DNA from: a virus
Lineage: Duplodnaviria; Caudoviricetes
Length of the DNA stretch: 64,000 nt
Virus record (IMG/VR): IMGVR_UViG_3300014656_003390
Coordinates: 1,780-65,779 of that record
Strand: one strand, 5' to 3'
Positions within the stretch are counted from its first letter, which is position 1. Each line of letters opens with the position of its first letter. Below, in pieces: positions 24,011 through 55,722 of this stretch. The position numbers were made by a program, and so were the translations under genes. Below the pieces are notes generated by a model. That model ran no database searches. It had not been told where the DNA came from and saw nothing but the letters and a program-made list of their open reading frames with translations.

Positions 24011-24107
24011 AATAAAACGAAAATCAAAATATTTATAAACTCTAAAATATTTAAATAATAGTTAAAATGTTCTATATTTATACAGATGTAAGGAGGTTAA
24101 AAGTTAA

Positions 24108-27747: not shown

Positions 27748-27884
27748 ATAACTCCTAAATTTAGTTCTGTTCCTTTTAATTTAAATAAATAATGCATTTC
27801 CTTAATTGCATGTTTTCCTAACTCTTCATAATTATTAAATTCTTTTCCACAATTTTTACATATCATTTCTCTTTTCTTTTCCAT
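27744..27884 (-). CDS. C2H2-type Zn finger protein (46 aa)
   Basis: ICKNCGKEFNNYEELGKHAIKEMH; not in the track. Confidence 0.65.
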   Translation of the reverse strand: MEKKREMICKNCGKEFNNYEELGKHAIKEMHYLFKLKGTELNLGVI

Positions 27885-27898
27885 AATTAAATTACTCA

Positions 27899-28738: not shown

Positions 28739-30030
28739 ATTTTTCTTCTAACCTCTTTATCAATTTCTTCTCTTAGTCTTTTTAAATTTTTATTACTTAA
28801 TTCATTCGTCCTAACATTACTACAATCTTGTTTGTCAAATCCTCTATAAAAACTATCTTCAGTTGCATATCTTGGCTTATTAAAATATAAACCATTATAC
28901 TCCCATTTATAATCTTTAAACTTTTTGGATGGAATAGCATTATCATATATCTTACTACCAGGGTATGGAGTTATTAAATTAAAATCAAAATCATTTGGTT
29001 TATTTTTTAAAAGCCAATCTTTTGACATCATAATATCTTCAAAAGTTTCATCTGGAAACCCAAGCATCATAAATGCTTCATAATGTATTCCTGCATCTTT
29101 TATAAGTTTGCATGCTTTTGAATTTTCTTCACTTGTTGTTCTTTTATTTATATTTTTCAACATTCTATCAGACCCACTCTCAATACCTGTACAAAGTTTT
29201 ACAAACCCAGCATCTTTTAACCATTGAACGCTTTCAGGATATTTACAAATCATATCGCTTCTAACAAACCCTCTATGTTGATATTTTCTTTTTGACAACA
29301 ACTTACACAATTCTTTTAGTCTTTTGATATTAATATTAATCTCATCATCATACCACATAAAACTTTCATATCCATACTTTTTATTTAATTCATCTAATTC
29401 TTCTAAAATTCTTGTTGGAGAGTGTGTTCTTGTTTTATTATACATTTCAATATCTCTCCCACAACAAAAAGTGCATTGAAATGGACATCCTCTTTGTGTC
29501 ATAATACATGTTGTATCTTTTCCTAGAAGACTATAATGATAACTTTTAATATCTATGAAATCTCTATTTGGTATTGGGACATCATCTAAATTTTTGATAA
29601 GATTACCTTTTTGCCATCCAGATTTAAACATATTACTTGTTTCTTCTCCTTCACCAGCAAATATAGTATCAAACACTTCTAAATCTTTTATATTGATATC
29701 TTCTATACCTTTTTCTCGTAATGAATATAAAGCACTTGAATGTGCACCACCAATCATAGTTTTTGCCTTTGGATTATATTGCTTTAATATATTAAATATC
29801 TTCATTATATAAGGGAATTGTGGAGTGGTAGAACTAAACCCAAACCATTCGTAATTATTGGTATAAGGAATTATATCTTCTGCTTTTTTTCCTGTTAAAT
29901 CAATAACATCTACCAATTTTCCTTCATTTCGTAGTTGAGTTGCCACTCTTAATATACCTATATTTGGAAATGTTTTTTCATTAATTAAAAACGGACTATT
30001 TGAAATTATTAATGCTATATCTTTTTTCAT
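28726..30030 (-). CDS. B12-binding radical SAM protein
   Basis: IGGAH; TQRGCPFQCTFC (CX3CX2C); GIESGS. Confidence 0.9.
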   Translation of the reverse strand: MKKDIALIISNSPFLINEKTFPNIGILRVATQLRNEGKLVDVIDLTGKKAEDIIPYTNNYEWFGFSSTTPQFPYIMKIFNILKQYNPKAKTMIGGAHSSALYSLREKGIEDINIKDLEVFDTIFAGEGEETSNMFKSGWQKGNLIKNLDDVPIPNRDFIDIKSYHYSLLGKDTTCIMTQRGCPFQCTFCCGRDIEMYNKTRTHSPTRILEELDELNKKYGYESFMWYDDEININIKRLKELCKLLSKRKYQHRGFVRSDMICKYPESVQWLKDAGFVKLCTGIESGSDRMLKNINKRTTSEENSKACKLIKDAGIHYEAFMMLGFPDETFEDIMMSKDWLLKNKPNDFDFNLITPYPGSKIYDNAIPSKKFKDYKWEYNGLYFNKPRYATEDSFYRGFDKQDCSNVRTNELSNKNLKRLREEIDKEVRRKICIK

Positions 30031-30134
30031 TTGAAATAATTTTGTGGAAAAGGAAAATATGCATCTGTCTCTGCATCATAATAACCTGAACCACAAACCA
30101 CAACTCCATTTTGTTTTAATTCTTTTTTATTCAT
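30027..30134 (-). CDS. Small ORF (35 aa)
   Basis: MNKKELKQNGVVVCGSGYYD...; ATGA overlap. Confidence 0.4.
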   Translation of the reverse strand: MNKKELKQNGVVVCGSGYYDAETDAYFPFPQNYFK

Positions 30135-30135
30135 T

Positions 30136-30489
30136 TTATATTCCTCTTATTAATCCCCTATTGTCGTAATGTTTTGGGTCTAATTTACTTATAATATATC
30201 TAAATTGTTTATACTTATTTGTTTTAAGCCAAAATGTAAACCAAACTGCATTCATATGAGGACTACAAACATTCACTTTATGATGTTGGTAGCATAAAGT
30301 AATTCCATTATTTACATCCCATCTTGTTAATTTAATACCTTTTGGTATTATATGATGAGCATGACAATTATTCTTTTCTATTTTCTTTTGGCATATTTGA
30401 CAAGTATAATTATCTCTTTCTTTAACTTTTAGTTTCCAAGCATTATCTAAGTCGCTTATTTCTTTTTTATTTGTTATTTTTTTTGGCAT
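30136..30489 (-). CDS. HNH endonuclease (NinG-like)
   Basis: RDNYTCQIC, HAHHII, RWDVNNGITLCYQHH. Confidence 0.8.
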   Translation of the reverse strand: MPKKITNKKEISDLDNAWKLKVKERDNYTCQICQKKIEKNNCHAHHIIPKGIKLTRWDVNNGITLCYQHHKVNVCSPHMNAVWFTFWLKTNKYKQFRYIISKLDPKHYDNRGLIRGI

Positions 30490-30710
30490 TTTTTCTCCAG
30501 TTCACTTATCAAATATTTTATAATTGGTATATCATCTGTTATATCTACAAATTTATATTTTGTATTAACATGGTAACTCATATACAATTTATTCTTGTCT
30601 ATCCAATAATTATTAACTTTACCTACCATTGTTTTTTCCATATTACTTTCGTCTGTTCTAATATAAGGAATGTTTTCTTCATTAAAAGGCATGGCTATCT
30701 CCTCCATCAC
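30474..30710 (-). CDS. Hypothetical protein
   Basis: Overlapping ORF in operon. Confidence 0.5.
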   Translation of the reverse strand: MMEEIAMPFNEENIPYIRTDESNMEKTMVGKVNNYWIDKNKLYMSYHVNTKYKFVDITDDIPIIKYLISELEKKCQKK

Positions 30711-31305
30711 AAGTTATTATTGCACCATTAATATGGCTAGCTTTATTTGAACAAAGAAATGTAACTATATTTGCTATATCTTCTGGTTCTCCTAGTGATA
30801 ACTTATTCTTTTGTGCAAATTCTTTTATTGATGGTTTAGTATTAATACACCCAGGACATATAACATTAAAAGTAATTCCGTCATGTTTTCCTGCAATTGA
30901 TTTCATAAATCCAATTTGTGCTGCCTTTGATGCAACGAAATATGGATTAGGTCCTTTCTCTTTTCCATAAAAAGAAGATATAGTAATAACTCTACCCCAT
31001 GTTCTATCTTTTGCTAAAAAGAAATCTGTCAGTAATTGAGTTATCCTATAATTTTTAAATATACAATCATCAGCATCTTCTCTTGCACATGTACCCATAC
31101 CACCAATATTATTAATTAAAATATCTACCTCTAATAATTTTGATAAATCTACCAAATCAAGTGCTCTCATTAAATCTTGTCCTTCTTCTCTACTCCAACT
31201 AATAACTTTAACTCCTTCTGCTTCTAATGCTTTTTTAATTGCTAATCCTATTCCATGACTCCCACCAGTTACAATTGCTTTCTTTCCTTTAAGATTTAAA
31301 TCCAT
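30682..31305 (-). CDS. Short-chain dehydrogenase/reductase
   Basis: TGGSHGIG, LINNIGG, YVASK, NVICPG. Confidence 0.9.
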   Translation of the reverse strand: MDLNLKGKKAIVTGGSHGIGLAIKKALEAEGVKVISWSREEGQDLMRALDLVDLSKLLEVDILINNIGGMGTCAREDADDCIFKNYRITQLLTDFFLAKDRTWGRVITISSFYGKEKGPNPYFVASKAAQIGFMKSIAGKHDGITFNVICPGCINTKPSIKEFAQKNKLSLGEPEDIANIVTFLCSNKASHINGAIITCDGGDSHAF

Positions 31306-32222
31306 TTTAATATCTCCTTTACTATTGTATCATTATCTAAACCATTTAATTTATCAATCATTTCTCTCTTTCCGTAATTTTGTATATAATCTTTTACTCC
31401 AAACCTTTTAAATCTTATTGAAATATTATTATTACATATAAAATCTGCAATTGAACTTCCTATACCACCACATTCTAAATGCTCTTCTAGTGTTATAACA
31501 TTTTTAAAATTTTTTAAATATTTTAATAATAATTTTTTATTTAAAGGTGCTATTCTATACAAGTCAATAACACCAACACTTTTTATTTCATTTAATCTTC
31601 TACTAATTTCTAATGCTTTATGAACCATAATTCCTGTAGCAATAATTATTACATCTCTACCTCCACCTTCTATTAATGATAAACCATCATTAAAATTATT
31701 TTTCATATTATTGTATATTAAAGGCAACGGATGGTGGTCAAACTTAACATAGGATAAATGTGGTCTATTATAAAATATATTTGAAAGTTCTGCTAAACAT
31801 ATCGTATCAGCAACATTATAAATATTCATATTAGGAATTGTTTTTAATATTCCAATATCTTGAATTGAATGATGTGTTGGTCCTTCGTGACAATAAGAAT
31901 AACCAGCACCTATACCTATAATTGTTACTGGTAGATTTTTTACTCCCAAATCTAAACTTATTTCTTCAAAACATCTTAAAGTAACAAAGGGTGATATACC
32001 ATGAACAAATACTTTCTTTCCACATGTTGCTAATCCTGCAGCAACTCCAATTAAATTTTGTTCTGACGGTCCAATATTTATTAATTGTTCTGGAATATTT
32101 TCTCTAAACTTCTTGAATGTTCCTGCATTTTGGTCTCCAAGAAGTAAGATTACATCTTTATCTTTTAAAGCATTCTTATAAAGTTCTTCAAACATTGCAT
32201 CTCTCATATCATTATATATCAT
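31296..32222 (-). CDS. Transketolase, C-terminal (pyrimidine-binding) subunit
   Basis: NIGPSEQNLIGVAAGLA, GPTHHS, ITLEEH. Confidence 0.9.
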   Translation of the reverse strand: MIYNDMRDAMFEELYKNALKDKDVILLLGDQNAGTFKKFRENIPEQLINIGPSEQNLIGVAAGLATCGKKVFVHGISPFVTLRCFEEISLDLGVKNLPVTIIGIGAGYSYCHEGPTHHSIQDIGILKTIPNMNIYNVADTICLAELSNIFYNRPHLSYVKFDHHPLPLIYNNMKNNFNDGLSLIEGGGRDVIIIATGIMVHKALEISRRLNEIKSVGVIDLYRIAPLNKKLLLKYLKNFKNVITLEEHLECGGIGSSIADFICNNNISIRFKRFGVKDYIQNYGKREMIDKLNGLDNDTIVKEILKWI

Positions 32223-33040
32223 TCTAATTCTCTCCTTGCAATTTCCAATTGTTCTCCTTTTGGTATTCCGTGATGCCATGCAGGATTACCTTCCATATAT
32301 GAAATACCTTTTCCTTTTATAGTATTTGCAATAATTACCTTTGGTTTATTTAATTTTGAATATTTAAAGACTTTAAGACAGGTAAGAATTTCATTAAAAT
32401 TGTGTCCGTTACATTCTATAACATCCCAACCAAACGATTTCCATTTTTCTACTAATCCAAGTCCGTCTCCAACATAAGTTGATGTTAATTGATGAGTTCC
32501 AAATTTGTTATTATCAACAATCACAATCAAATTACTTAACTTTTGTGCAGAAGCAAACATAACTCCTTCCCAAATACTTCCTTCATTGCATTCTGTATCT
32601 CCTAGCATAACATATGTTTTATAATCTTTTTTATCTAATTTTGCAGCAAGAGCAATTCCACATCCTAATCCTAATCCATGTCCTAGTGAACCACCTGTCA
32701 TTTCAATGCCAGGAGTATGATAATCTGAATGTTCAGGCATAGATGTTTGTCCATATTTTTCTAAATCTGCAATAGTAAAGAAATTATTGTCAGCTAATAT
32801 TGTATATAATGCAAGAGGGCAATGCCCTTTACTATAAATCAATCTATCCCTATCTGGAGAGTTAATTGTCTTTGGAGTTACATTTATAATACCACCATTG
32901 TAAAGAGAAAGTAATAATTCAACACTTGACAATGCCCCACCAAGATGTGCCTGCCCGGTATTTATGGCAACATCAAATAGTTTTTTTCTAACCCATCTGG
33001 CTTTTTCTATTAATTGTTTTTCGTTAAGCGTTTTTTTCAT
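32219..33040 (-). CDS. Transketolase, N-terminal (ThDP-binding) subunit
   Basis: HLGGALS, DRLIYSKGH, GGSLGHGL, GDTECNEG, KGKG. Confidence 0.9.
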   Translation of the reverse strand: MKKTLNEKQLIEKARWVRKKLFDVAINTGQAHLGGALSSVELLLSLYNGGIINVTPKTINSPDRDRLIYSKGHCPLALYTILADNNFFTIADLEKYGQTSMPEHSDYHTPGIEMTGGSLGHGLGLGCGIALAAKLDKKDYKTYVMLGDTECNEGSIWEGVMFASAQKLSNLIVIVDNNKFGTHQLTSTYVGDGLGLVEKWKSFGWDVIECNGHNFNEILTCLKVFKYSKLNKPKVIIANTIKGKGISYMEGNPAWHHGIPKGEQLEIARRELE

Positions 33041-33735
33041 TTTATATTAATTAAATTTAATTGTTTCATTTCTTTATTTGATAATTTTGTTGGAAGACAA
33101 TATAAAATACCACGATATAATAATCTCGGAGCACTCCACATATATTGAATATTGTCAAATGTTTCACTATCAACATTTAGTCCAGCTTCTTCTATATTTT
33201 TTATAAATGGTTTTACAGGGTCACATCCTTCAAGAGTATTTGTATAAAAGTAAAATTTAGGATTGACTTTTAATAATGGTTTTCTAACCAAATCCATATT
33301 CAAATCAATTCCATCATAACAAATTCCTCCAAGAAAATGTTTAAAGTCGTGAATTATTATAATTGAGTTTTTCCTTTCTTTTAATGCTTCTAATTCTTGT
33401 AATATAACAAATCTTTCTTTATTTGTCTTACAACCTTTTACGAAAAAATGAGCGTCCAAATAATAACATAATATAGTTTTTTCTTGATTAATTCTTTTTA
33501 AAAATTCTGAACTATCATCTTTAAAAATAATAACATTTTTATAATCTTTCAATCTTTCTTTTGCTTTATTAAAATAATCTTCATTCTTCTCACAAGTTAG
33601 AACATAATCAAAATTCTTACTTTGAACTTCTGCATTTATTCCTCTGAAAGTTCCTGTTTCAATAAAAGTAGAAACATGATATTTATCTCTTAAATAACAA
33701 ATTGTTTTAATTGCACCCAAATCTGTCCAACTCAT
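33037..33735 (-). CDS. Class I SAM-methyltransferase-like protein
   Basis: FIETGTFRG, YYLDAH, IIIHDF. Confidence 0.65.
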   Translation of the reverse strand: MSWTDLGAIKTICYLRDKYHVSTFIETGTFRGINAEVQSKNFDYVLTCEKNEDYFNKAKERLKDYKNVIIFKDDSSEFLKRINQEKTILCYYLDAHFFVKGCKTNKERFVILQELEALKERKNSIIIIHDFKHFLGGICYDGIDLNMDLVRKPLLKVNPKFYFYTNTLEGCDPVKPFIKNIEEAGLNVDSETFDNIQYMWSAPRLLYRGILYCLPTKLSNKEMKQLNLINIK

Positions 33736-34418
33736 ATTTTATATTCTCCCACTTTCCATTTCTCTCTCATAAGTCTATAAGCCTCTTTTTTTAATTCTTC
33801 AATATTTGCAACCTTTTCATGTTGATGTCCTTTAATATAATCCGGCATATGGTCTACCCAGTAATCAACTTGATAAACTTCTAATCCTAATTGTTTAATC
33901 GCATAAGTATAATCTATATCCACTCCCCATCCTATTGGATACCTCTCATCATATCCTCCTAATTTTTCAATAGTTCTGTAAGGAATATAAGTACACCAAG
34001 CACCAACCCAATAAAATCCATTTATGAAATCGGAACCAGAATAATTACCTCCACCATAAGAAGTTATAATTCCGCAATCTATTCTTTCTTGTGCTAATCC
34101 TTTCATATGCATTAACCAATCTCTTCCTAAACATTTTGGAAAGATAACATCAGTTTGTGTAAGGAATAAATCTTCTTTTCTTTCTTTTGCTATCTGGAAT
34201 AATCTATTGTATGCCTTTAATGGACCTTCTTTTGGAGTATGTATTACTTCAACAAAGTCATAAAACTTTGCTAATTCATCACAAAATTCTGCACTACCAT
34301 CTATACTTCCACTTTCAAGAAGTATTATTTTATCTCTAACCATTGTTGAATTTATAAAACTATAAAAACAATATTTTAATCCTTGTAAGTTATTATAAAT
34401 TGGAATACCTATTATCAT
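33732..34418 (-). CDS. GT-A (GT2-like) glycosyltransferase
   Basis: IGIPIYNN, LLESGSIDGS, GGYDE, GVDIDY. Confidence 0.8.
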   Translation of the reverse strand: MIIGIPIYNNLQGLKYCFYSFINSTMVRDKIILLESGSIDGSAEFCDELAKFYDFVEVIHTPKEGPLKAYNRLFQIAKERKEDLFLTQTDVIFPKCLGRDWLMHMKGLAQERIDCGIITSYGGGNYSGSDFINGFYWVGAWCTYIPYRTIEKLGGYDERYPIGWGVDIDYTYAIKQLGLEVYQVDYWVDHMPDYIKGHQHEKVANIEELKKEAYRLMREKWKVGEYKI

Positions 34419-35689
34419 TTATTAGCACCTCTTTGTCTCAAGAACTCTTGTAACTCTAACATATTATTCATAATCTGTTTTCTTGTTAACCCTTTCCCTT
34501 CTTCATATTCATATGGAACAGCATCTTCAGGATTATCTTTGCTATCCTTAAACCTACAAACTAAATGATTCATTTTTCCCCAATCTTTACTTACCCATTT
34601 TATTCCATATTTTTCAGGAGTGTTATAAATAGGACTTCCTGGATATGGTTGAAGTGAAGACAATAAAACTAAATCAGGATTAATTTTATTAACAAATTCT
34701 TTTGTCTCTCTAACAATATCTATTGTCTCTCCAGGTAACCCATTAAGTAAATATATCCTTGTTTTTATATCATACTTTTTACAAAGAGCCATCATTGTTG
34801 ATGCATCGTCTATATTAATTTTCTTATCAGCAATTTCTAAAACCTTTTTGTTAACACTTTCAATACCAAAACTTAATTCAACTAATCCACTTTCTTTTGC
34901 TAATTTCAATATGTCTTCGTCTGTATTTAACCTTATCTGTCCTCTCCATTTTATATCTTTACTCTTGATTAAGTTTAGCCAATCTACTGCTTCTGTTTTA
35001 TTTAAAGGGATACATATTTCATCTTGAAGTGATAATCCTTTTACTCCATATTCTTTTTTTAGATAATCAATCTCATCTGATATTTTTTGTAATGAATTTC
35101 TTTTAATTGCTCCTCTTTGATAATTTGCACAAAAATTACAACCAAACGGACAACCAAAACTAAATTGTGCTGTTGTTGATGTCATTTCGTCTGTTTTAAA
35201 TAAATGTTCATTAATTATATGTTTTTTTGGAAGGAAGTGTCTTTTAGGAAAAGGATACTCACATATTGGTTTTTCTGATATAATATTTACATATCTTTCT
35301 TTTATATTAGGATAATCTTTTAATATTTGTTCTAATGCTCCTTCTCCTCTACCAATAACAATACTATCAAATCCTCTTGTTATGTCTGGAAGTATAGTAG
35401 GATGAGGACCACCTGCAATATGCTTTGAATTAGGATATATTATTTTTAAATCTTCTGCAATCATTTGACACTCAATTAAATCTGGACTTGCTATTGTATA
35501 AAAATATAAATCTGCTTCCTTTGGTATTAACTTTTTATTCTTTTCATCTCTAAAATCAGTAAAACTAACTTCACATCCTTTCTCTTCAAGTATTGTCGCA
35601 AGATATAATTGTGTTAATGGTTGTGCTCTTAAAGGTTCAGCCCAGTAGTGCCAAGTTGGTATAATAAAGTTTATAGAAAGTTTAGACAT
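34415..35689 (-). CDS. B12-binding radical SAM protein (second copy)
   Basis: AGGPHPT; FGCPFGCNFC; FGIES. Confidence 0.9.
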   Translation of the reverse strand: MSKLSINFIIPTWHYWAEPLRAQPLTQLYLATILEEKGCEVSFTDFRDEKNKKLIPKEADLYFYTIASPDLIECQMIAEDLKIIYPNSKHIAGGPHPTILPDITRGFDSIVIGRGEGALEQILKDYPNIKERYVNIISEKPICEYPFPKRHFLPKKHIINEHLFKTDEMTSTTAQFSFGCPFGCNFCANYQRGAIKRNSLQKISDEIDYLKKEYGVKGLSLQDEICIPLNKTEAVDWLNLIKSKDIKWRGQIRLNTDEDILKLAKESGLVELSFGIESVNKKVLEIADKKINIDDASTMMALCKKYDIKTRIYLLNGLPGETIDIVRETKEFVNKINPDLVLLSSLQPYPGSPIYNTPEKYGIKWVSKDWGKMNHLVCRFKDSKDNPEDAVPYEYEEGKGLTRKQIMNNMLELQEFLRQRGANK

Positions 35690-36722
35690 TTTCTCTCCAC
35701 CAATTTAATAAATCTTTCATAGTAGTTTCAAAAGAAATTGTTCTTGTCCATCTTGTATCTTTTATAAATTTATAACAATCAGGAATTTGTAATGTAACAT
35801 CGTATGGGCGAAGTAAAGTTGGGTCCAATTCTTTTTTAATTCTATCCTTTAAAGGGGAAAGAGATATAAGATAATCTAACATTTCTCCTATTGTCTTTGT
35901 TGTCTTGCCACCAATATTATAAACTTCTCCAATTGTTCCTTTTCTTACAAGAAGATAATATGCTTGAACTGCATCTCTTACATCAGCCCATGTTCTTATT
36001 GAATCTAAGTTTCCGTGTTTTAATATAAATTCTGCTTTTGTATTTACACAAGCATGTTCTAATGCATCTTCTTTATAATTTTTCTCAAACTCTGCAATCT
36101 GTTTAGCAAAATTAACTTCTGCACTTAACATAGTTCTTCTTGGTCCAGTATGCGTAAACATTCTTGTTCTTATTGTTTTTATTTTAAAATTTGTCCAATA
36201 CATTAATGCAATCATATCTTCTCCTACTTTTCCAACAGCATAAGGATTTGCAGGATTAAATGCTTGAGTTTCTTTTATTGGAACATCTTCTGCTTTAACA
36301 AGTCCGTATACTTCACTTGATGAACAAACATGAATGATTGGGTCGTAATGATATTTATATCCATAAGTCGGTACATTATATTTTGATTTCTCTCTAACAA
36401 TCCTAATTGCTTCTAATAAATTATAAGTTCCAAGAGTATTTGTTCTTATTGTTTCTTCAGGATAAATAAAACTTGCAGATGGATAACTTTGTGCTCCAAG
36501 ATGAAATATATAATCTGGTCTTACTTCATCAACTGCTTTAATACAAGAACTTAAATCATTTAAGTCCATTAATATCCAATGAACTTTATCTTTTATATGT
36601 TTAAAACTTTCTTGGTTATCAGTCCATCTATAAGTAACATAAACTTCTTCTTTCTTTTCAAGAAGTAAATCTGCAAGATGACTTGCTACAAATCCTGGTC
36701 CTGTTATTAAATTTTTAATCAT
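35682..36722 (-). CDS. gmd: GDP-mannose/GDP-heptose 4,6-dehydratase family
   Basis: HLGAQS, SSSEVYG, NPYAVGK, GNLDSIRTWADVRD. Confidence 0.8.
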   Translation of the reverse strand: MIKNLITGPGFVASHLADLLLEKKEEVYVTYRWTDNQESFKHIKDKVHWILMDLNDLSSCIKAVDEVRPDYIFHLGAQSYPSASFIYPEETIRTNTLGTYNLLEAIRIVREKSKYNVPTYGYKYHYDPIIHVCSSSEVYGLVKAEDVPIKETQAFNPANPYAVGKVGEDMIALMYWTNFKIKTIRTRMFTHTGPRRTMLSAEVNFAKQIAEFEKNYKEDALEHACVNTKAEFILKHGNLDSIRTWADVRDAVQAYYLLVRKGTIGEVYNIGGKTTKTIGEMLDYLISLSPLKDRIKKELDPTLLRPYDVTLQIPDCYKFIKDTRWTRTISFETTMKDLLNWWRENV

Positions 36723-37099
36723 TCTATAATCACATCCCTTACATCATTAAATGCAGCAGATATATAACTTTCACAAGCAGCATCTATAATTATACTATCT
36801 TCACTAAACCAGCCACCATGAGTTATTCTACCACTTCTAAATACAACATCTCCTGCTTCTAAATCAAAGTCTTCTACTTCTCCTGTATCAATATTTTTCA
36901 TTCTGTATTTTGATTTACCTTGTAAGACATACATAACTTCAGCATATGGATGCCAATGATTACCAAGTAGTTGTTCACCTTTTTTTATTTTTAATATTTT
37001 CATATTCTTAACTGCTAATTCTCCATTTATAATTTCAAATATGCATCTTCTTTCGTCTTCACTTACTAATTTTGCTTTTCTAATTGTTACGCCATTCAT
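36719..37099 (-). CDS. Cupin (sugar 3,5-epimerase/isomerase, WxcM-C/RmlC-like)
   Basis: GNHWHP...EVMYV...ITHG. Confidence 0.7.
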   Translation of the reverse strand: MNGVTIRKAKLVSEDERRCIFEIINGELAVKNMKILKIKKGEQLLGNHWHPYAEVMYVLQGKSKYRMKNIDTGEVEDFDLEAGDVVFRSGRITHGGWFSEDSIIIDAACESYISAAFNDVRDVIIE

Positions 37100-37100
37100 T

Positions 37101-37268
37101 TTAATAAACTTTTTGAGTATTTCCTCCAAATTGAGATTTTATATTTAAATCTACTTCCTGTTTAAGTTCTTCTTTAAATTTATCATCTTCTCCTGTTGCT
37201 GATACAATATACCATTTTATATATGCTACCTTTGGTTCTATTTCACATATGTATATTATTAAATTCAT
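37101..37268 (-). CDS. Small ORF (55 aa)
   Basis: Fills the gap; ATGA overlap with the upstream gene. Confidence 0.4.
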   Translation of the reverse strand: MNLIIYICEIEPKVAYIKWYIVSATGEDDKFKEELKQEVDLNIKSQFGGNTQKVY

Positions 37269-37819
37269 TTTCCAAATGCTCCTGTCGGTACTTCAATTAA
37301 TAAAGTTGACAACCCCTGGTTAGCCATATCTAATGCATATTTATAACTTGGTATTACATCCTTTTCATTCTTAATTTTTATTACTTTAACATTCTTTAGC
37401 ATTTTTTTTAATCCTGTCGTATAATCTCCTGTATGCTGTAATCCTCCATTCATTGGATATTTACTTCCAATTTGAGTTCGTATTATAACTCCAGGATAAA
37501 ACTCTCCTTTACTCATATCCTCTATTTTATCTAAATGATTTACTAACTGATTAATAGCGCATATTAAAAAATCAATTCTCGGAAATATTGTTATAGGTAT
37601 AAATCCTTCTAATGATAACCCAATACTTAATCCCATTTGAGTATCTTCAAAGACAGGCATTTCTATTTTCTTTTTATCTAAAATATTCTTTAAACTTCCG
37701 TATATTGGACTACCCTCATAAATAACTGTTTGTCCTAGGAAAACTGTATTTGTATCTCTTGCTAACATATCCATTGCCTTAACTAAATTTTGCTGATACT
37801 TTTTATTATTTATAGGCAT
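37265..37819 (-). CDS. 2-oxoacid dehydrogenase E1-beta-like subunit (short)
   Basis: VFLGQ, MPVFEDTQMGLSIG, NQLVNH, GLQHT. Confidence 0.85.
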   Translation of the reverse strand: MPINNKKYQQNLVKAMDMLARDTNTVFLGQTVIYEGSPIYGSLKNILDKKKIEMPVFEDTQMGLSIGLSLEGFIPITIFPRIDFLICAINQLVNHLDKIEDMSKGEFYPGVIIRTQIGSKYPMNGGLQHTGDYTTGLKKMLKNVKVIKIKNEKDVIPSYKYALDMANQGLSTLLIEVPTGAFGK

Positions 37820-38519
37820 TATAATCTCCTTGCGATTTAAATTTCTTTTTCTTAAATATTATCCATTCTCCTACTCCATAATGAGGATACACTCTATTAT
37901 AAGTATAATAAATACAATATTTATTTATAGGAAAACTTCTTTGACCCCATACTTCATATGTAGGAGTATTATTTGCAATACCATTATCCTCAATTATAAA
38001 AGTTATTGGTAAATCATGTCCTTTAGCATATTTAATTGCTTCATCAAAGCATCCCATTTCAGAAGCCATATCACCAACAAAGCACCAAACGTGTGGCATA
38101 TCCATACAAGTTCCTATTATTCCTTTTTCAACATCCATAGTAGACAGATTAACATTTCTCCATCCGTTATCCCAATTTCTTTTAATTCCCATAGCGGTTC
38201 CTAAAGCAATTGGAATACAACCTCCGACAATAGCACTTGAAAATATTTTATACTTCGCTGAATTAATATGACTTGAATTTGCATTAACTATAATTTCATT
38301 CATAAGCCAACTCCAATCTTCAGATTTAAGTAAAGCATGATAATGACTTCGATGTGTTGTAAATACCCAATCATTATCTTTTATTTTTTTGAATATTTTA
38401 ATAAGTTGGTCTTCATTTCCACCACTTAAATGAACAGGTCCATAAGTATTTCCTTCTTTATATTTTGCTATTACTTCTTGTTCAAAGTTAATTAAATCTT
38501 GTTTTGTTATTTGTTTCAT
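37806..38519 (-). CDS. 2-oxoacid dehydrogenase E1-alpha-like ThDP subunit
   Basis: GPVHLSGGNE, THRSHYH, AIVGG, GDMA...EDN. Confidence 0.85.
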   Translation of the reverse strand: MKQITKQDLINFEQEVIAKYKEGNTYGPVHLSGGNEDQLIKIFKKIKDNDWVFTTHRSHYHALLKSEDWSWLMNEIIVNANSSHINSAKYKIFSSAIVGGCIPIALGTAMGIKRNWDNGWRNVNLSTMDVEKGIIGTCMDMPHVWCFVGDMASEMGCFDEAIKYAKGHDLPITFIIEDNGIANNTPTYEVWGQRSFPINKYCIYYTYNRVYPHYGVGEWIIFKKKKFKSQGDYNAYK

Positions 38520-38836
38520 ATTTTATAACTATCCTCATCATCATGATGTGTTGATGCTTCTATAAATTTACAATATGGAGTTACAGAAGTGAATTTGTGA
38601 AGTGTAAAGGGAGGAATTCTAAATGAGTCTCCCTTTTCTAAGATTATACTGTATCCATCGACTACTAAATGTAACTCTCCTTCTAAAATAAAAAATGTTT
38701 CATCTTTATTTTTATGATAATGATACTTTCCTTTTGATGACCATTTATCTTTAAAACATATCATTACTTTACTACAATATAATTCATTATTTAATAACCA
38801 CATTTCACTTCCCCAAGATTTAATTACTAATTTCAT
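38516..38836 (-). CDS. Cupin-fold sugar isomerase
   Basis: KSWGSE, YHYHKNKDETF, HKF, EASTHH. Confidence 0.75.
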   Translation of the reverse strand: MKLVIKSWGSEMWLLNNELYCSKVMICFKDKWSSKGKYHYHKNKDETFFILEGELHLVVDGYSIILEKGDSFRIPPFTLHKFTSVTPYCKFIEASTHHDDEDSYKI

Positions 38837-39252
38837 TTTTCTTTTATTCCTGTTAGCCAAGATGATGACTGAATTTTATCTCCTAAATCATTAAGCATCA
38901 TAATTCCCAATTCATTACAAACTTTTGTTTCTCTATTATCTTTAATATCTCCACCATTTGCAAATATAAAAGTATTTTCTGGAAATGACTTAACTAAAAA
39001 TCTTAATGTTTCACAAACACTTCTATCTTTATCTATTGAAATAAATACTTTATCCACTCCTTTAATGTTTGTCATAATCTTAATTCTCTCATCTTCATTC
39101 ATAAAACTACCTCCTTTCTTTAATTTTGCTTGTTCATCATTATTAACTATTACCCATAACTCATTACTATAAGATTTTGATATTTTTAAATATTCTAAAT
39201 GCCCAATGTGAAGTGGGTCATAATATCCCGAACAAATAATTATACAATCCAT
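38833..39252 (-). CDS. Cytidylyltransferase-like nucleotidyltransferase (HxGH)
   Basis: SGYYDPLHIGH, FANGGD, SSS. Confidence 0.85.
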   Translation of the reverse strand: MDCIIICSGYYDPLHIGHLEYLKISKSYSNELWVIVNNDEQAKLKKGGSFMNEDERIKIMTNIKGVDKVFISIDKDRSVCETLRFLVKSFPENTFIFANGGDIKDNRETKVCNELGIMMLNDLGDKIQSSSWLTGIKEK

Positions 39253-40187
39253 GTTTCTACCCCATGAATACTGAAATTAAAATCAATAATTGCATTATAT
39301 TTATTTTTTAAAGCATCAATTAAATCTTTTCTATTTTCTGGTTTAACGAAAAATATAAAATGTCCTGCTTGTCCAGAACCACATAGTTTTCCTCCTTCTG
39401 CTCCATTCTTTAATGCCCAATTATATAAAATATCAATTCTTTTTGAAGAAGTAAATTTATTTCTTTTTAATTCCCAATTTGCTCTGAGTAGACTTGGTAT
39501 ATTTTTAACATCAGATTTTAGTAAAGCATCTCTCATTCTATAAGCCAATCCTTTTATATCTGCTGTTCTTTTCATTTCATCTTTATGTTTTTCACTATGT
39601 TCTCTTAATTCTTTATGAATATCTCTTCCTTCTTTAGAACCACCAATATAACATAAAACAAAATGTTCATTCAATTCTCTTATAAAAGAATACTTTAATT
39701 TTAATGGATAAACAGTTTGATAATCTTTTCCGAAGTCCATGAAATTAAATCCTCCAAGAGTTGTTGCATATTGGTCTTGCCAACCACCTTCTTTAATTGA
39801 TGTTTCAATTTCATATGCTTCTTTTATTAAATCATAATCATTAGTTCTTCCTCCATGAAGTTCATATAAAAGACGCAACAATAAAATTACAAAACTTGAA
39901 CTACTACCTAAACCACTTCCTGGAGGAATATCATTATAATAAATTAAGTTAAATCCTTTGGTTGGTTTAAAATATTCTATAACTTTGCTTGCTAATATTT
40001 CTGTACTATTTAATTCTTTATCGTTGATATAAATCTTTTTATCTTTTCTTTCTTCTATTGTCATGTGACAGAATTTATTAATTGTTGAACTAATGACTGC
40101 TCCACCATATTTTTCAAATATATAATTTAAATCAGTTCCTCCTCCAGTAAACGAAATCCTAAGCGGTGCTATTCCTCTAATTCTCAT
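39240..40187 (-). CDS. hddA: GHMP kinase, heptose-7-phosphate kinase family
   Basis: APLRISFTGGGTD, PPGSGLGSSSS, GWQDQY, GGKLCGSG. Confidence 0.85.
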   Translation of the reverse strand: MRIRGIAPLRISFTGGGTDLNYIFEKYGGAVISSTINKFCHMTIEERKDKKIYINDKELNSTEILASKVIEYFKPTKGFNLIYYNDIPPGSGLGSSSSFVILLLRLLYELHGGRTNDYDLIKEAYEIETSIKEGGWQDQYATTLGGFNFMDFGKDYQTVYPLKLKYSFIRELNEHFVLCYIGGSKEGRDIHKELREHSEKHKDEMKRTADIKGLAYRMRDALLKSDVKNIPSLLRANWELKRNKFTSSKRIDILYNWALKNGAEGGKLCGSGQAGHFIFFVKPENRKDLIDALKNKYNAIIDFNFSIHGVETWIV

Positions 40188-40473
40188 TTTCTTTTTTCCA
40201 TACTTGTTTTACTTTTTTTACTAAATCTGTATCCCTTGAGTTATGCCATATATCTTTTGGAAAATATTTTCTTGTATCTATAACTTTGTCTGCCCATTTT
40301 CTAAGTATATCCATTGTTTCTTTTGTAGAATATTTTTCTCCAATAGCTATTGCTTCATATTTTATAACTAAATTTGGGTCATTTGTTCTTCCATTCAAAC
40401 CTTTTATAAATTGTGCCAGAGCTACACTTCTTATATTTCCCCCATCACATATACATAATACTTTTGTTGTCAT
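40177..40473 (-). CDS. Small LMW-PTP-like phosphatase
   Basis: VLCICDGGNIRS = CX5R(S) P-loop. Confidence 0.7.
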   Translation of the reverse strand: MTTKVLCICDGGNIRSVALAQFIKGLNGRTNDPNLVIKYEAIAIGEKYSTKETMDILRKWADKVIDTRKYFPKDIWHNSRDTDLVKKVKQVWKKENEN

Positions 40474-41738
40474 TTCTTTTCTCCTATCAACAACTGATTT
40501 GAAAATAACCAATCCTGTGGTACATCTTTAACTAATATTCCATAACTACTTATTTTATCTATCCACCATTGTTTATCATGAAATTGTTTATGAGTGCTAT
40601 CTGCTTCTAAGTTTGGGTCTCCTTCAAATGGTATTGAGAATAAAAAATTATCACTATATGAAAGAATATTTTTTAATGCTTTGTCAAGTTGTTCATCTGT
40701 TAAATGTTCCAATATATCTATACATAAACAAACTTTATATTTCCATTTGTTCTTATTTTTTATTTTTGTAATATCTCCTTCACAAACATCCATTACTCCA
40801 CTATTAGTTCTAAAGGCATTATCAACTGCAAATTTACTAATATCAAATCCTAAATAATCATAATCATAACTAGCAATTGCAAACCCGAACGGTGCTCGTC
40901 CACAACCAAATTCTACAAAATTACATTCTCTATCATTATTATCAAAATAATTTATCCATTGTTTTGCCATAAGAAAATGTTTAACTTCTAATCCTCTATT
41001 AGCAAAATAAAATTCATCTTTATTAATTTCATATCTATCACAAATTTGTTTTGGTAATTCAACAGGATTAATTTGTTTAGTTGGATATAAACCAAGCAAA
41101 TGAGCCATCTTCCATTGTTTCAAGAAGTCCTGATTATGAATAATGCTATCCGATGCATGTTGTTTATATCTTTTTAAAATATAATCCATATATTCTACAG
41201 GCAAATGTCCAAGATGCCAAATAGTAGTATCTAAACAAGCACCTTTTAATTCTCCTTCTAATACTGGATGACTATGAAGTGGATATCCTTTTGCTTCTGA
41301 TATTTTAAATAACCTTCCTGGAACAACATGCACAGGACGAGTGTTATCTTCATGCCCTAAATCTCCAATGAAGTGTCTCATCTTAACATTATAAATTCCA
41401 GGTTCTCTTTCTGATATGAATTTCTTTATTTTTTCAATTCCTTCTTCTTCTAATATTTCATCTTCGTCTAAAACCAAACACCAATCATTAGGATAAGCTT
41501 GTTTTAAATAATCTAAATATTTCTGTCTACATTTTCCATTTGTTGCCATATCATTATCATCCCAGCCATTATAATGAACTTCTTGATTGTCTGGTAAATG
41601 TTTTAAGCACGGACTTATTGAAAAGCTATAATCGCTTGTAAAATATAAAATTTTATCTGCATCTTTTACACTATCAAAACACATATCAAGAAAATGTTGT
41701 TTTCCAGGTCCCATGATAACTATTACCAATTTATTCAT
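40470..41738 (-). CDS. Glycosyltransferase-methyltransferase fusion
   Basis: N-terminal LVLDEDE (DxD) and IWHLGH; C-terminal EFGCGR, GFDIS, IDILEHL. Confidence 0.85.
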   Translation of the reverse strand: MNKLVIVIMGPGKQHFLDMCFDSVKDADKILYFTSDYSFSISPCLKHLPDNQEVHYNGWDDNDMATNGKCRQKYLDYLKQAYPNDWCLVLDEDEILEEEGIEKIKKFISEREPGIYNVKMRHFIGDLGHEDNTRPVHVVPGRLFKISEAKGYPLHSHPVLEGELKGACLDTTIWHLGHLPVEYMDYILKRYKQHASDSIIHNQDFLKQWKMAHLLGLYPTKQINPVELPKQICDRYEINKDEFYFANRGLEVKHFLMAKQWINYFDNNDRECNFVEFGCGRAPFGFAIASYDYDYLGFDISKFAVDNAFRTNSGVMDVCEGDITKIKNKNKWKYKVCLCIDILEHLTDEQLDKALKNILSYSDNFLFSIPFEGDPNLEADSTHKQFHDKQWWIDKISSYGILVKDVPQDWLFSNQLLIGEKK

Positions 41739-42589
41739 TTCTTCTCCTCCCTTAAATAAAATTCAACAAGTCGTTTAATTCCTTCTTCTAACTTTATTTT
41801 TGGTTCATATCCGAATCTTTTTATTTTACTTATATCAATATTTACTTGTTGAGGTTGTGCTATTTCTGGTTCTTTCAGTTCTATATCCATATGACACTCT
41901 CCTATTTGGTCTGCAATTTCATGAGAAATTAGTTGAGCGACATCAATTAAATTTCTACTATCTTCTCCACTAATATCATAATCTGTATTTTTTGCTTCTT
42001 CCCAATTATTTAATAAACAAAATATCCCATCTACAAAATCACTAATGTAAGTAAAATCAAGTGTTTTATGACTATCACCACATAAAACTAAATATTCTCC
42101 TTTTAAAGCATTAATAACCCAAGTTGTTAAAAGTCGAGTTGTTATATCTTTACAAGGAGCATATACTGTGCTTGGCCGAATTATAATATAATCTATCCCA
42201 TAACAATTGTGGTATGCTTTACATAAATGTTCTCCATACTTTTTACTTGCTGTATAAGGATTTTCTTCTTCACTTAAAACTCTTGATGAAGAAAAATAAA
42301 CTATTTTCTTTATATGATTTCTTCTACAGTATTCTAAAACATGTTCTATGCCATCTGAATTTTCAAATGCTAAATCTGGGTTGCTTATTGTATCTTTTAT
42401 TTTACAATTACTTGCTAAATGAAACATAATATCGGCATTTAATTGTTCATCAATAACGGATAAATAATCTGTACTAATATCACTATTTCTCTTATCAACT
42501 TCTAAAATACATTCGCATCCTTGCTTATCTAATTCTCTTTTTAAATATTGTCCAATCATACCACATGAACCTGTAATAATATACTTCAT
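41735..42589 (-). CDS. NAD-dependent epimerase/dehydratase (extended SDR)
   Basis: TGSCGMIG, FSSS, PYTASK, RPSTVY, LDFTYISD. Confidence 0.9.
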   Translation of the reverse strand: MKYIITGSCGMIGQYLKRELDKQGCECILEVDKRNSDISTDYLSVIDEQLNADIMFHLASNCKIKDTISNPDLAFENSDGIEHVLEYCRRNHIKKIVYFSSSRVLSEEENPYTASKKYGEHLCKAYHNCYGIDYIIIRPSTVYAPCKDITTRLLTTWVINALKGEYLVLCGDSHKTLDFTYISDFVDGIFCLLNNWEEAKNTDYDISGEDSRNLIDVAQLISHEIADQIGECHMDIELKEPEIAQPQQVNIDISKIKRFGYEPKIKLEEGIKRLVEFYLREEKK

Positions 42590-43755
42590 CTTGTAATCTC
42601 CACAATTAATTTATTCCAGTCAGCACCAACCTTATCCCAATTATATAATTTATTTACTTTATCTATTCCAATTTTTCCATAATGTTCTCTTAATTCAGGA
42701 TTATCATATAAGAGTGTTAATGCTTTTGCTCCACTTTCATCATCCATAATTGCTCGTTCTACATTCCAACTTCCTGTTAATTCTGTTGCTATTTTTATAG
42801 GAATACCACACACACCATCCTCAACTAATAATTCCTGTGTTGTAGCATAATCAGTTACTATAGGTGTAATGCCACAAGCCATTGCTTCAATAGTAGGAAT
42901 ACCAAATCCTTCTCCAGATGTTGTTAAGAAGAATACATCCATAACATTATAAACTTCATTCATTTGTTTATAATCGAAACCATTAAAGAATGTCATTCCA
43001 GAAAACATAACCCTATTATTTATTTTATATCTGTTAATCAATTGAATTATATCTATTGGTGCTGCTACATCATATGGGTCAGTATGTAAAAATAAAATAG
43101 CATCTGGATGGTCTTTAGCAAATAGAGCAAATGATTTAATTAATCTATCAGGCATCTTTCTTCCTTGATTTCTTTGAACAACACCAACAACAAACTTTCC
43201 CTGAAGTCCCCACTTTGCTTTTATCTTTTCTTTTTCTTCTTTTGGTAATGGAAAATAAATCTTTGTATCTATAGCATGTGGAATATATTTTGTATCAAAT
43301 CCATAACATTCTTTTACTTGCCTTTGTCCATGCCGAGCCATAGCAACAGGACAATTAACTTTCTTTAAAATATTTTCACATTGAAGAGGTAATCCTCCAC
43401 CACCATCGCTTGGGTAATAGAATATAGTTTTTGCAGGTGAAAAATCAATATTCATTAACCATGGCCAACACATAAAAGTATCAAGTAAAATTCCAAACAC
43501 ATCTATATTATATTTCTTTATGTATGGTTGAATTAAATTTTGAGCATATGGAACATGACTTCCACCTAATATAGTAAAATTAAATTTTGTTCCATCTTTA
43601 AGAATTAATCCAGGAGGTATTTCTTGACCAACATAATTATGGCCTAGAAAATAAACATTATGTCCTGCTTCTGCAAGCTTATTACATATATTCCAAGATA
43701 TTGTCGCATAACCAGTACAACAAAGAGGAGAGTCGCTTAACCAAAGAATGTTCAT
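42586..43755 (-). CDS. GT-B (GT4-like) glycosyltransferase
   Basis: IPHAID, RNQGRK, GEGFGIPTIEAMACG. Confidence 0.9.
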   Translation of the reverse strand: MNILWLSDSPLCCTGYATISWNICNKLAEAGHNVYFLGHNYVGQEIPPGLILKDGTKFNFTILGGSHVPYAQNLIQPYIKKYNIDVFGILLDTFMCWPWLMNIDFSPAKTIFYYPSDGGGGLPLQCENILKKVNCPVAMARHGQRQVKECYGFDTKYIPHAIDTKIYFPLPKEEKEKIKAKWGLQGKFVVGVVQRNQGRKMPDRLIKSFALFAKDHPDAILFLHTDPYDVAAPIDIIQLINRYKINNRVMFSGMTFFNGFDYKQMNEVYNVMDVFFLTTSGEGFGIPTIEAMACGITPIVTDYATTQELLVEDGVCGIPIKIATELTGSWNVERAIMDDESGAKALTLLYDNPELREHYGKIGIDKVNKLYNWDKVGADWNKLIVEITR

Positions 43756-54398: not shown

Positions 54399-54411
54399 TT
54401 TCTTTTTCTCC

Positions 54412-54477
54412 TTTATTTTGTTTTTCGGCTCATGCCTCATCAGCAACCAGACTTTTACTGGTTGGAAACAAAATAAA
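54412..54477 (-). ncRNA. Type III hammerhead ribozyme
   Basis: 12-bp stem III, UUC cleavage triplet, 7-bp stem I, CUGAUGA, 3-bp stem II, GAAA; all core nucleotides present. Confidence 0.9.
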
Positions 54478-54509
54478 ATAACAATTTTATTAATCTTCTT
54501 TAATCTTCT

Positions 54510-54650
54510 TTAATCTTCTTGGTGTTCTAAACAACATTCGCTCTGTTTACTCTTAACTTCATCTTTTTCAATTGTATCTACACTTTCCAATATTTCATCA
54601 ACCTTAATTTCTATCTTTTCGAAATCTTGTATTGTTGTTTGTTTTTCCAT
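54510..54650 (-). CDS. Small acidic protein (46 aa)
   Basis: MEKQTTIQDF...EHQED; followed by AGAAGATTAA x3. Confidence 0.45.
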   Translation of the reverse strand: MEKQTTIQDFEKIEIKVDEILESVDTIEKDEVKSKQSECCLEHQED

Positions 54651-54651
54651 T

Positions 54652-55722
54652 TTATATATTTTCTTCTGTTATCTCTTCAACTTCAGGAAGTTCAATTTTG
54701 TATTTGGGAATTGCATAAATACCAAAAGTATTTATTGTTACATTACTAAGTTCATCAGTTAAATTTCCCATATCATCTCTCTTTTTTCCTTGAGATGTTC
54801 TTCCTACTACAAGCACTTTACTACCTTCTGCAAAATCTATATTTATTCTTGAAGGTATCCAACAAGTAATACCATTGTTTGCTTCTATATCTTCTAGAGC
54901 AAGTGTTTCGTCTTCTATATTCATAATTCTGCTACCAATACTTGTTGGTTCAAGTCTTAAACTACTAACACTGCCTTCAGTTATGACAAATCTATTGAAG
55001 TTATCTTTAGTTAGTAGATGATACTCTGCTAAATCTTTTATCTCAACAAAAACATTTGTTATTTTTAATAAAGTTTCAAATTCAGGTATTTTTAGTTCAT
55101 TATCAACATTAAATGTTGTAAATGACGATGGATTTAACACATAACTTGATGTATTTTCTTTTGGTGTTTTATCAATAGCCATAAATCTTACTGGCTGAAA
55201 TATTGGTAAGTTTTCATCCTTTGCTTTATCACCTGATAAGTTCATTGTAAAAACTTTTGGTATATCATTAACATTTTTTGAATTAATAGCAATACCTATA
55301 ATATTTCTTAAATAGTTATGCTCTGGTAATGGTTTACCATATGATGAATTTCTTCTTCCCCCAGCCCATTCTTTTCTTGTATCAAGAGGTATTCCTTGTT
55401 CATCAACAATTCCTTGAAGGATGGCTTGTTGTGGATCATTTTTGTATTTTTCTAAAGCATCACGTTTTTGTTTTGCTACTATATCAACACAATCACCCAT
55501 TCCAATTATAAATCCTTCAAACCCTGTTGCTGGACTTCTTAATTGTTTCTTATAAAGAAGTGCTAATCTACTAAGTGCTCTTTGGTTCTTATCTTCTTCT
55601 GATAAATCTTTGTGAATATCATTTTCTTCAGCTAGAAGAATTTGATAATCTTTTTCAATATCTTTTTGAGGCATGGAAAGTTTATCACTCCATTCTTTTA
55701 TAAGCTCGTTAAATTGTTTCAT
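54652..55722 (-). CDS. Probable single-stranded DNA-binding protein (RPA-like OB folds)
   Basis: Next to the recombinase; helical N-terminus, beta-rich OB-like C-domain (ITCWIP...KVLVVGR), acidic tail. Confidence 0.45.
   Translation of the reverse strand: MKQFNELIKEWSDKLSMPQKDIEKDYQILLAEENDIHKDLSEEDKNQRALSRLALLYKKQLRSPATGFEGFIIGMGDCVDIVAKQKRDALEKYKNDPQQAILQGIVDEQGIPLDTRKEWAGGRRNSSYGKPLPEHNYLRNIIGIAINSKNVNDIPKVFTMNLSGDKAKDENLPIFQPVRFMAIDKTPKENTSSYVLNPSSFTTFNVDNELKIPEFETLLKITNVFVEIKDLAEYHLLTKDNFNRFVITEGSVSSLRLEPTSIGSRIMNIEDETLALEDIEANNGITCWIPSRINIDFAEGSKVLVVGRTSQGKKRDDMGNLTDELSNVTINTFGIYAIPKYKIELPEVEEITEENI

Follow-up and report, generated by a model that had tools for sequence, protein, structure and literature searches.

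Intergenic hammerhead ribozymes have been described by the hundreds in bacteria and their prophages, and at least three in archaea (Perreault et al. 2011, PMC3088659). Those of prophages cleave polycistronic RNAs both in vitro and in vivo, and the role proposed for them is the cutting of long transcripts into shorter mRNAs (PMC3088659). In the haloviruses HF1 and HF2, a hammerhead is located 13 nt upstream of the start codon of an early helicase gene, and its cleavage site lies no more than 3 nt from a mapped transcript 5′ end (PMC3088659); a comparative study from 2020 still listed its function as unknown (PMC7230728). An earlier note on the DNA analysed here had regarded hammerheads as little documented in archaeal viruses, which overlooks this halovirus case (PMC3088659; PMC7230728).

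We analysed a stretch of 64,000 nucleotides of a viral contig (hereafter, the window), whose minus strand carries a type III hammerhead motif at the Shine-Dalgarno (SD) sequence of a Sak4-like gene. As in the phage and prophage hammerheads of Perreault et al. (2011), a canonical core is combined with a sense-strand intergenic position, varying neighbour genes and a tailed-virus genome. The clusters of at least two copies flanking genes found in that study have their counterpart in the relatives L018, L098, L144 and L162, whereas the ribozyme of the window is single both in the window and in the 65.8-kb contig. It also differs from the earlier collection by a 3-bp stem II, an AUGA loop 2, a UAAAAGU loop 1 and a 12-13-bp A/U stem III lying on a T-tract; the stem II/loop 2 string did not occur in the searched part of the supplementary files of Perreault et al. 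(2011), a part that may not include the large alignment file. Compared with HHphage of HF1/HF2, a core-insertion variant from high salt that precedes a helicase gene, the window ribozyme has a fully canonical core, belongs to a low-GC groundwater virus and precedes a Sak4 annealase. It shares type III topology, core, A15.1-U16.1 and G10.1-C11.1 with the Rfam family RF00008 (Hammerhead_3, comprising viroid, satellite, retrozyme and some bacterial members), but lies far below the threshold of that model and is encoded by a DNA virus, not in a circular RNA replicon. A further parallel is RiboJ, an engineered sTRSV type III hammerhead used in synthetic biology as a 5′-UTR insulator, which is likewise placed directly upstream of a ribosome-binding site (RBS) and whose cleavage strips the upstream RNA context. 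RiboJ has a designed hairpin that presents the RBS, while in the window an unpaired A-rich leader would precede the SD once the fragments separate. Phage hammerheads are already well known, and what is distinctive here is a subclass invisible to Rfam, its position between an SSB-like gene and a Sak4 gene, the existence of relatives with and without it, and a probable non-halophilic archaeal host.

Anatomy of the hammerhead and its gene context

All core nucleotides and the three stems were present on the minus strand (Table 1), in agreement with the complete type III hammerhead claimed in the earlier note, whose minus-strand letters were as given. The stem lengths stated there (12, 7 and 3 bp for stems III, I and II) and the G10.1-C11.1 pair were borne out as well; U54478 and G54411 provide a possible thirteenth stem III pair, a G.U wobble, so that stems I/II/III amount to 7/3/12(+1 G.U) bp. 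A15.1 (A54423) was paired to U16.1 (U54466). Cleavage had been predicted after C54465, which agrees with the family rule that H17 is not G, and the predicted ends are a 2′,3′-cyclic phosphate on 54465 and a 5′-OH on 54464. According to both the fold and a structural descriptor, loops cap stems I and II and stem III is open, as in type III topology. When 54485..54405 was folded with ViennaRNA, the MFE and centroid structures were exactly the three-way hammerhead junction (-20.3 kcal/mol, z = -3.0), and 0 of 200 shuffles were equally stable.

Table 1. Features of the hammerhead locus and its surroundings. Positions are those of the window except in the last row.
Feature	Position	Strand	Remark
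Type III hammerhead	54478..54411	-	Core nucleotides all present, read from the sequence
Stem III, 5′ strand UUUUAUUUUGUUU	54466..54478	-	Within a T-rich tract common to ribozyme-less relatives; strand proper UUUAUUUUGUUU, 54477..54466
H17 = C	54465	-	Predicted cut C54465/C54464, by the family rule
Stem I CAACCAG/CUGGUUG, 7 bp	54464..54458 with 54450..54444	-	Sequence and fold
Loop 1 UAAAAGU	54457..54451	-	Caps stem I
Core strand C3-U4-G5-A6-U7-G8-A9 (CUGAUGA)	54443..54437	-	Sequence
Stem II GGC/GCC, 3 bp, with loop 2 AUGA	54436..54427	-	Sequence and fold; closed by G10.1-C11.1 = G54436-C54427
Core G12-A13-A14 (GAA)	54426..54424	-	Sequence
Stem III, 3′ strand AAACAAAAUAAAG	54411..54423	-	Sequence and fold; strand proper AAACAAAAUAAA, 54423..54412
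Shine-Dalgarno AAGGAG	54408..54413	-	Overlaps distal stem III by its first two or three bases
Three perfect tandem copies of AAGAAGATTA	54491..54520	-	Extend across the ORF46 stop codon, shortly before the ribozyme
ORF46, small acidic, conserved in relatives	54510..54650	-	L167 shares the N-terminus MEKQTTIQDFEKIEI
ORF356, probable tandem OB-fold ssDNA-binding protein	54652..55722	-	Conserved partner gene of Sak4
Sak4-like/AAA_24 ssDNA-annealing protein, 262 aa	53610..54398	-	First gene after the ribozyme
DnaE-type polymerase, 1381 aa	46554..50699	-	About 270 N-terminal residues before the PHP domain without family match
Features of relatives named in the text	L166 8125-8152; L167 6374-7126; L165 204-608; L170 6045-6098

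The contig, an IMG/VR record of 65.8 kb with 28% GC and rated about 46% complete, has genes for terminase, portal/minor head, prohead protease/capsid and tail. A spacer of 111 nt contains the ribozyme; it is the only sizable gap of a packed minus-strand block that runs from ORF356 and ORF46 through the ribozyme, the Sak4-like/AAA_24 gene, two unknown ORFs, a dCMP deaminase, a dUTPase/NT5C fusion, the DnaE-type polymerase, ThyX and a PD-(D/E)XK nuclease to a weak PriL-like ORF. The downstream gene, called a recombinase in the earlier note, is indeed a Sak4-like gene at the head of the replication operon (PF13479, 1.2e-19, 71.3 bits with a cut-off of 27; phrog_124, 3.5e-27). Likewise, the described AAGGAG/ATG arrangement at the end of stem III holds in the sequence, where the 3′ strand runs into the SD (GGAG, 54411..54408) and then the ATG (54398). 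Scans for sigma-70 promoters and terminators between 53000 and 57500 remained at shuffle level, and a tRNA scan of the window found none.

In L146 (reverse strand, ~330-385), a motif related to the tandem repeat, AGATTAAAGAA, occurs twice upstream of the hammerhead, overlapping a stop codon. Elsewhere in the window, an 18-kb auxiliary cluster on the minus strand (25772-43755) encodes several GT1/GT2 glycosyltransferases, a UDP-glucose/GDP-mannose dehydrogenase, a GDP-mannose 4,6-dehydratase, a NAD-dependent epimerase, two B12-binding radical SAM enzymes, a GHMP kinase, a methyltransferase, and transketolase-like and PDH-E1-alpha-like subunits, and looks like a complete sugar/glycan modification pathway.

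ORF356 had no match in Pfam, PHROG, NCBIfam or PDB sequences, and profile searches of PDB gave nothing meaningful. It belongs to an unannotated family of at least 117 proteins (117 homologs found). A first structural model built from 3 sequences (pLDDT 57) was discarded, and an AlphaFold model with 56 homologs aligned reached a pLDDT of 93.7. All 43 Foldseek matches of this model at E<=0.001 were OB-fold nucleic-acid binders, with TM values of only 0.2-0.33; most were tandem-OB ssDNA binders, with BRCA2-DSS1, Thermus/Deinococcus SSB, Pyrococcus RPA, RPA70 DBD-A/B, POT1, CST and Oxytricha TEBP among the matches. The nearest clusters in a protein atlas were archaeal RPA-like (0.89-0.92, to be taken as leads only). 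From the model, ORF356 is probably an SSB. In seven of seven further contigs, the ORF356 homolog was followed by one or two small, often very acidic ORFs and then by the AAA_24/Sak4 gene. An example of such an acidic ORF is MAEEEGTQVAEPEEKEEE... in L166, and the combination recalls DSS1 on the OB folds of BRCA2, or a bacterial SSB whose acidic tail is provided in trans. Annealing by Sak4 is stimulated by a cognate SSB (PMC5928155). The ribozyme would therefore most probably lie between the gene of an SSB and that of the annealase which works with it.

A hammerhead subclass and its visibility to Rfam

Both strands of the window were scanned with a type III descriptor that demands the core, GAA, a base other than G at H17 and stem lengths of 4/3/4 bp or more, and the locus was the single match. 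At these minimal stem lengths, the window shuffled 200 times with dinucleotides preserved yielded 0.025 hits per shuffle, the best of them with 17 bp in total, compared to 23 bp at the ribozyme. In independent assemblies of three additional groundwater samples, contigs spanning the locus showed 0 differences, so it is not an assembly artefact, and no micro-variation was found at the locus among DNA contigs of four groundwater runs.

The check with Infernal and Rfam models proposed in the earlier note turned out negative. Nothing in the whole window reached a gathering threshold, no hammerhead family appeared at E<=10 in the 301 nt around the locus, and RF00008 (gathering threshold 48.5 bits), run on the whole contig, gave no score at the ribozyme. 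As a control, RF00008 was run on five other viral records known to hold hammerheads. On the record of L018, whose three to four copies have a stem II of 4 bp, scores were 37-47 bits (22 bits for a fourth), and members of the window's subclass obtained 13.7 bits (record of L008) or no score (record of L017). RF00008 is thus nearly blind to the subclass with a 3-bp stem II, and the silence of Rfam reflects a limit of the model and not evidence against the motif. The sole match of RF00008 in the contig, on the plus strand at window 23993-24028 (contig 25772-25807), scored 17.2 bits (E 0.024) and is most likely noise, as the descriptor finds no hammerhead there.

The 21-nt string formed by the core, stem II, loop 2 and GAAA was found exactly in 9 other IMG/VR contigs and, when the middle pair of stem II was left free, in 14 other IMG/VR contigs and 66 metagenome stretches. 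This pattern fixes loop 2 as AUGA and the G10.1-C11.1 pair and leaves stems I and III unconstrained. A covariance model (R1) built from an alignment of 11 distinct sequences (A1) recognised full-length hammerheads in each of the 14 viral contigs and in 63 of the 66 metagenome stretches. In a larger alignment of 52 distinct sequences (A3), which was fitted to the model and thereby favours structure, 95.1% of the cells formed standard pairs, both sides had changed in 14 of 17 pairs and 208 cells were compensatory. Specifically, stem I was 98% paired, with six of its seven pairs covarying. None of 500 column shuffles reached the covariation score of A3, and pairing fell to 33-46% when partners were slid by 1-3 columns. 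In A1, compensatory changes affected 12 of 23 pairs, stem III being partly paired there by construction.

Among the 52 distinct relatives, H17 was C in 26, A in 24, U in 2 and never G, U16.1 was present in 51, and G10.1-C11.1 in all 52, a pair that the search pattern had fixed. The middle pair of stem II varied between GC, AU, GU and CG. Loop 1, free in the pattern, was UAAAAGU in 35 of 48 cases and fitted the looser UANAAGU in 43 of these 48; together with the pattern-fixed AUGA of loop 2, its conservation suggests a possible loop-loop tertiary contact, of the kind that hammerheads require to cleave fast at physiological Mg2+. Judged by sequence, the 3-bp stem II, AUGA loop 2 and UAAAAGU loop 1 mark a coherent hammerhead subclass.

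With regard to gene context, a same-strand ORF ended just upstream of the ribozyme in 58 of 67 cases, and an SD and start codon followed it in 55 of the 67; a tally of ribozymes within long open frames was left out as unreliable in AT-rich DNA. A terminator-like element recurrently precedes the ribozyme, its U-tract being the 5′ strand of stem III: a GC-rich hairpin plus U-run in a gut lineage and a T-tract in the window. In this human-gut viral lineage (L003, L004, L005, L007, L009-L011, L038, L050, L062 and many of L098-L163), the ribozyme directly follows a GGGTGTA...TACACCC hairpin and U-run, and the gene downstream encodes a Cys-rich 132-aa protein (MKKYKCTECRGNC...). The order of hairpin and ribozyme is the same in L008, with another hairpin. 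Two to four hammerheads lie within 0.3-2.7 kb in L018 (9729-11750), L098, L144, L162, L107/L137/L151, L133 and L155, where they flank small single genes and sometimes mix two different subclasses; in L018 the next start codon is 0-2 nt past the ribozyme. The human-gut members are on contigs with some similarity to a Clostridioides phage, and R1 had no hit in Clostridioides phage AR1086-1, which resembles the gut lineage in part. Among deposited phages, short-query blastn found none with this subclass and blastn of the 6 kb around the window locus gave no match. The presence of the subclass in human-gut contigs indicates that it is probably not specific to one domain.

Relatives with and without the ribozyme, and the probable host

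L106 and L146, two metagenome loci picked up only by means of the ribozyme pattern, carry ORF356 homologs (~55% identity) immediately upstream of the ribozyme. L106 reproduces the whole arrangement of the window, with ORF361, the acidic ORF35, the hammerhead and the N-terminus of Sak4, while in L146 the hammerhead is followed by an unrelated small gene. Stem I differs from that of the window by compensatory changes in both (CAUCCAG/CUGGGUG in L146 and CGACGG/CCGUCG in L106) and stem II of L146 is GAC/GUC; stem III is an all-A/U helix of 9-13 bp in all three.

No hammerhead was found in eight other relatives, namely L002, whose Sak4 is 72% identical, and L164-L170, as determined with R1 on the whole record of L002 and on L164-L167, and with the descriptor and all Rfam families on L164-L170. 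The ribozyme is therefore dispensable for the module. In these viruses the spacer is made up of a long T-rich tract and a TATA-like A/T stretch in front of the Sak4 start. An alignment places the T-tract opposite the 5′ strand of stem III of the window, ATTGTTATTTTATTTT being present in both L165 and the window, and the body of the ribozyme (45-50 nt) is an insertion or deletion relative to the ribozyme-less spacers. The T-tract and TATA-like stretch may act as an archaeal terminator and promoter. Insertion of the hammerhead into the loop of a pre-existing hairpin was considered and rejected, as the folds of the ribozyme-less spacers were not significant (z -0.5 to -1.7; L002 +1.0). The relatives also carry an S27e gene fragment at the edge of the locus, a weak PCNA_N protein, an ERCC4 nuclease, queuosine-type genes (PTPS, radical SAM) and a truncated tRNA-like hit (33.5 bits).

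An archaeal virus had been hinted at in the earlier note, and this is probably right given the terminase, Sak4 and polymerase matches and the gene content of the relatives. The best terminase match by far was Halogranum tailed virus 1 (3e-42, the next being 2e-15), eight of ten Sak4 matches were Haloarcula tailed viruses, and the best-covering polymerase match in the phage collection was the split DnaE of Methanobacterium virus PhiF1. ERCC4, weak PCNA_N and ribosomal protein S27e genes occur in the neighbourhoods of the relatives, and of the four MAG contigs that bear an organism label and encode an ORF356 homolog, three are archaeal (Aenigmarchaeota, Heimdallarchaeaceae and Nitrosopumilus). 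The DNA itself came from groundwater. Pei (PF12386) and PMBR (PF09373) were not found in the half-complete contig, and the PF12386 control matched nowhere; a scan of GTDB genomes with the polymerase returned only bacterial loci, 28-31% identical, and portal and capsid searches were uninformative on the host. Taken together, these sequence matches make an archaeal host probable, with a CPR-bacterial host as the main alternative.

Proposed action and alternative readings

The stretch from the ribozyme to the SD is too short for a promoter, and every Sak4 message must therefore include the ribozyme, except one initiated within it. The RNA would fold co-transcriptionally into the three-way junction and cut itself between C54465 and C54464, which would detach the upstream RNA, either the SSB/ORF46 cistrons or a primary leader. 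The upstream product would end in UUUGUUUC with a 2′,3′-cyclic phosphate; the downstream product would start with a 5′-OH cytidine that is base-paired in stem I, and would continue through the remaining ribozyme and an A-rich stretch into the SD and sak4. The Sak4-to-polymerase message would thus keep a 5′-OH end buried in the stem I hairpin. RNA ends that are base-paired and bear a 5′-OH are poor substrates for 5′-end-dependent RNases, and for this reason the fate of that message is probably uncoupled from that of the preceding RNA. Stability and translation of the two RNA halves may in this way become independent of each other, as with the RiboJ insulator and the role proposed for prophage hammerheads. 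The 12-13-bp stem III (-9 to -10 kcal/mol) could, on the other hand, keep the products together and favour religation. Other points against this proposal are a stem II of only 3 bp, the lack of an Rfam score and the absence of the element from eight relatives. The sequences themselves show the motif, its non-random occurrence, the covariation, the syntenic retention and the gene context; catalysis in vivo and an effect on expression are inferred. Altogether, the element is very likely a real, selected hammerhead, and it is likely that it both cleaves itself and uncouples the upstream RNA from the Sak4 message.

Long A/U helices form readily in DNA of 28% GC and Rfam gives no hit, so that the motif might be a chance resemblance in AT-rich intergenic DNA, or an ordinary hairpin or terminator. 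This reading has next to no probability left: minimal hits were rare in the shuffled windows and none had 23 bp, covariation extends throughout the family, and the terminator scan of the ribozyme strand was empty here. Shuffles and covariation effectively refute it. A different question is whether cleavage acts as a switch of the RBS, as suggested by the earlier idea that self-cleavage could alter SD access; stem III would then hide the SD until the RNA is cut and the 5′ fragment released, and Sak4 would be translated only from cut RNA. The AA and first G of AAGGAG do lie within distal stem III, and after cleavage and dissociation each SD base is at least 0.90 unpaired, the SD together with a 12-nt A-rich leader being at least 84% unpaired. 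However, partition-function calculations on uncleaved RNA of four lengths gave unpaired probabilities of ~0.03-0.08, 0.10-0.15, 0.39-0.45, 0.79-0.96, 0.73-0.99 and 0.90-0.99 for A, A, G, G, A and G, so the first G is already free at ~0.4 and the GAG at 73-99%, which weakens the idea. Furthermore, the stem III duplex still amounts to -9 to -10 kcal/mol after cleavage, which means that the fragments need not separate quickly and that release is not automatic, and the SD is found 3-66 nt beyond the ribozyme across the family, so occlusion is not conserved. Such a switch is therefore unlikely in the window. In L040 (523-584, minus), a type III hammerhead has a 10-bp stem III whose 3′ strand, ACGAGGAGGA, contains the whole SD (GGAGG) of the next gene, predicted to be fully sequestered (-14.7 kcal/mol); this favours the switch as a general idea, and the L040 copy is a better candidate for it than that of the window.

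The element could also be an inefficient hammerhead-shaped RNA, or a selfish or neutral cassette that moves between viruses without benefit to them. Its presence in three and absence from eight close relatives, the occurrence of the subclass in contexts as unrelated as probable gut bacterial phages and groundwater viruses, and the short stem II would fit with this. Against it, every copy found was intact, with compensatory changes, conserved loops and an H17 that is never G, and no decayed copies were seen in the spacers of the relatives, although the searches elsewhere demanded an intact core and would miss decayed ones. We thus regard a cassette devoid of benefit as improbable, and retain a self-cleaving hammerhead that separates the Sak4 message from upstream RNA. 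A more specific form of the latter is possible but rather doubtful: in one lineage, a hammerhead built on the T-tract may have replaced the usual spacer made of T-tract terminator and TATA promoter that separates the SSB-like and Sak4 genes, self-cleavage substituting for termination and re-initiation in setting the bounds of the two messages. The lineage concerned would be one of low-GC groundwater tailed viruses, probably archaeal (DPANN-, Asgard- or Thaumarchaeota-associated).

The subclass comprises about 80 metagenomic instances, from probable gut phages and groundwater viruses, that are essentially invisible to the Rfam type III model, and automated annotation will consequently miss it. 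Intergenic hammerheads of phages have been known since 2011 and their function is still unproven; this locus provides a clean natural comparison, in which the same SSB-like/Sak4 module occurs in three viruses with the ribozyme and in eight with a T-tract and TATA-like stretch, making a role in expression testable. It would also represent a probable second lineage of archaeal viruses with a hammerhead before an early replication gene. If the replacement of terminator and promoter were true, no earlier hammerhead would have been attributed to an archaeal virus outside the halophiles, and this one would have a specific job that can be tested.
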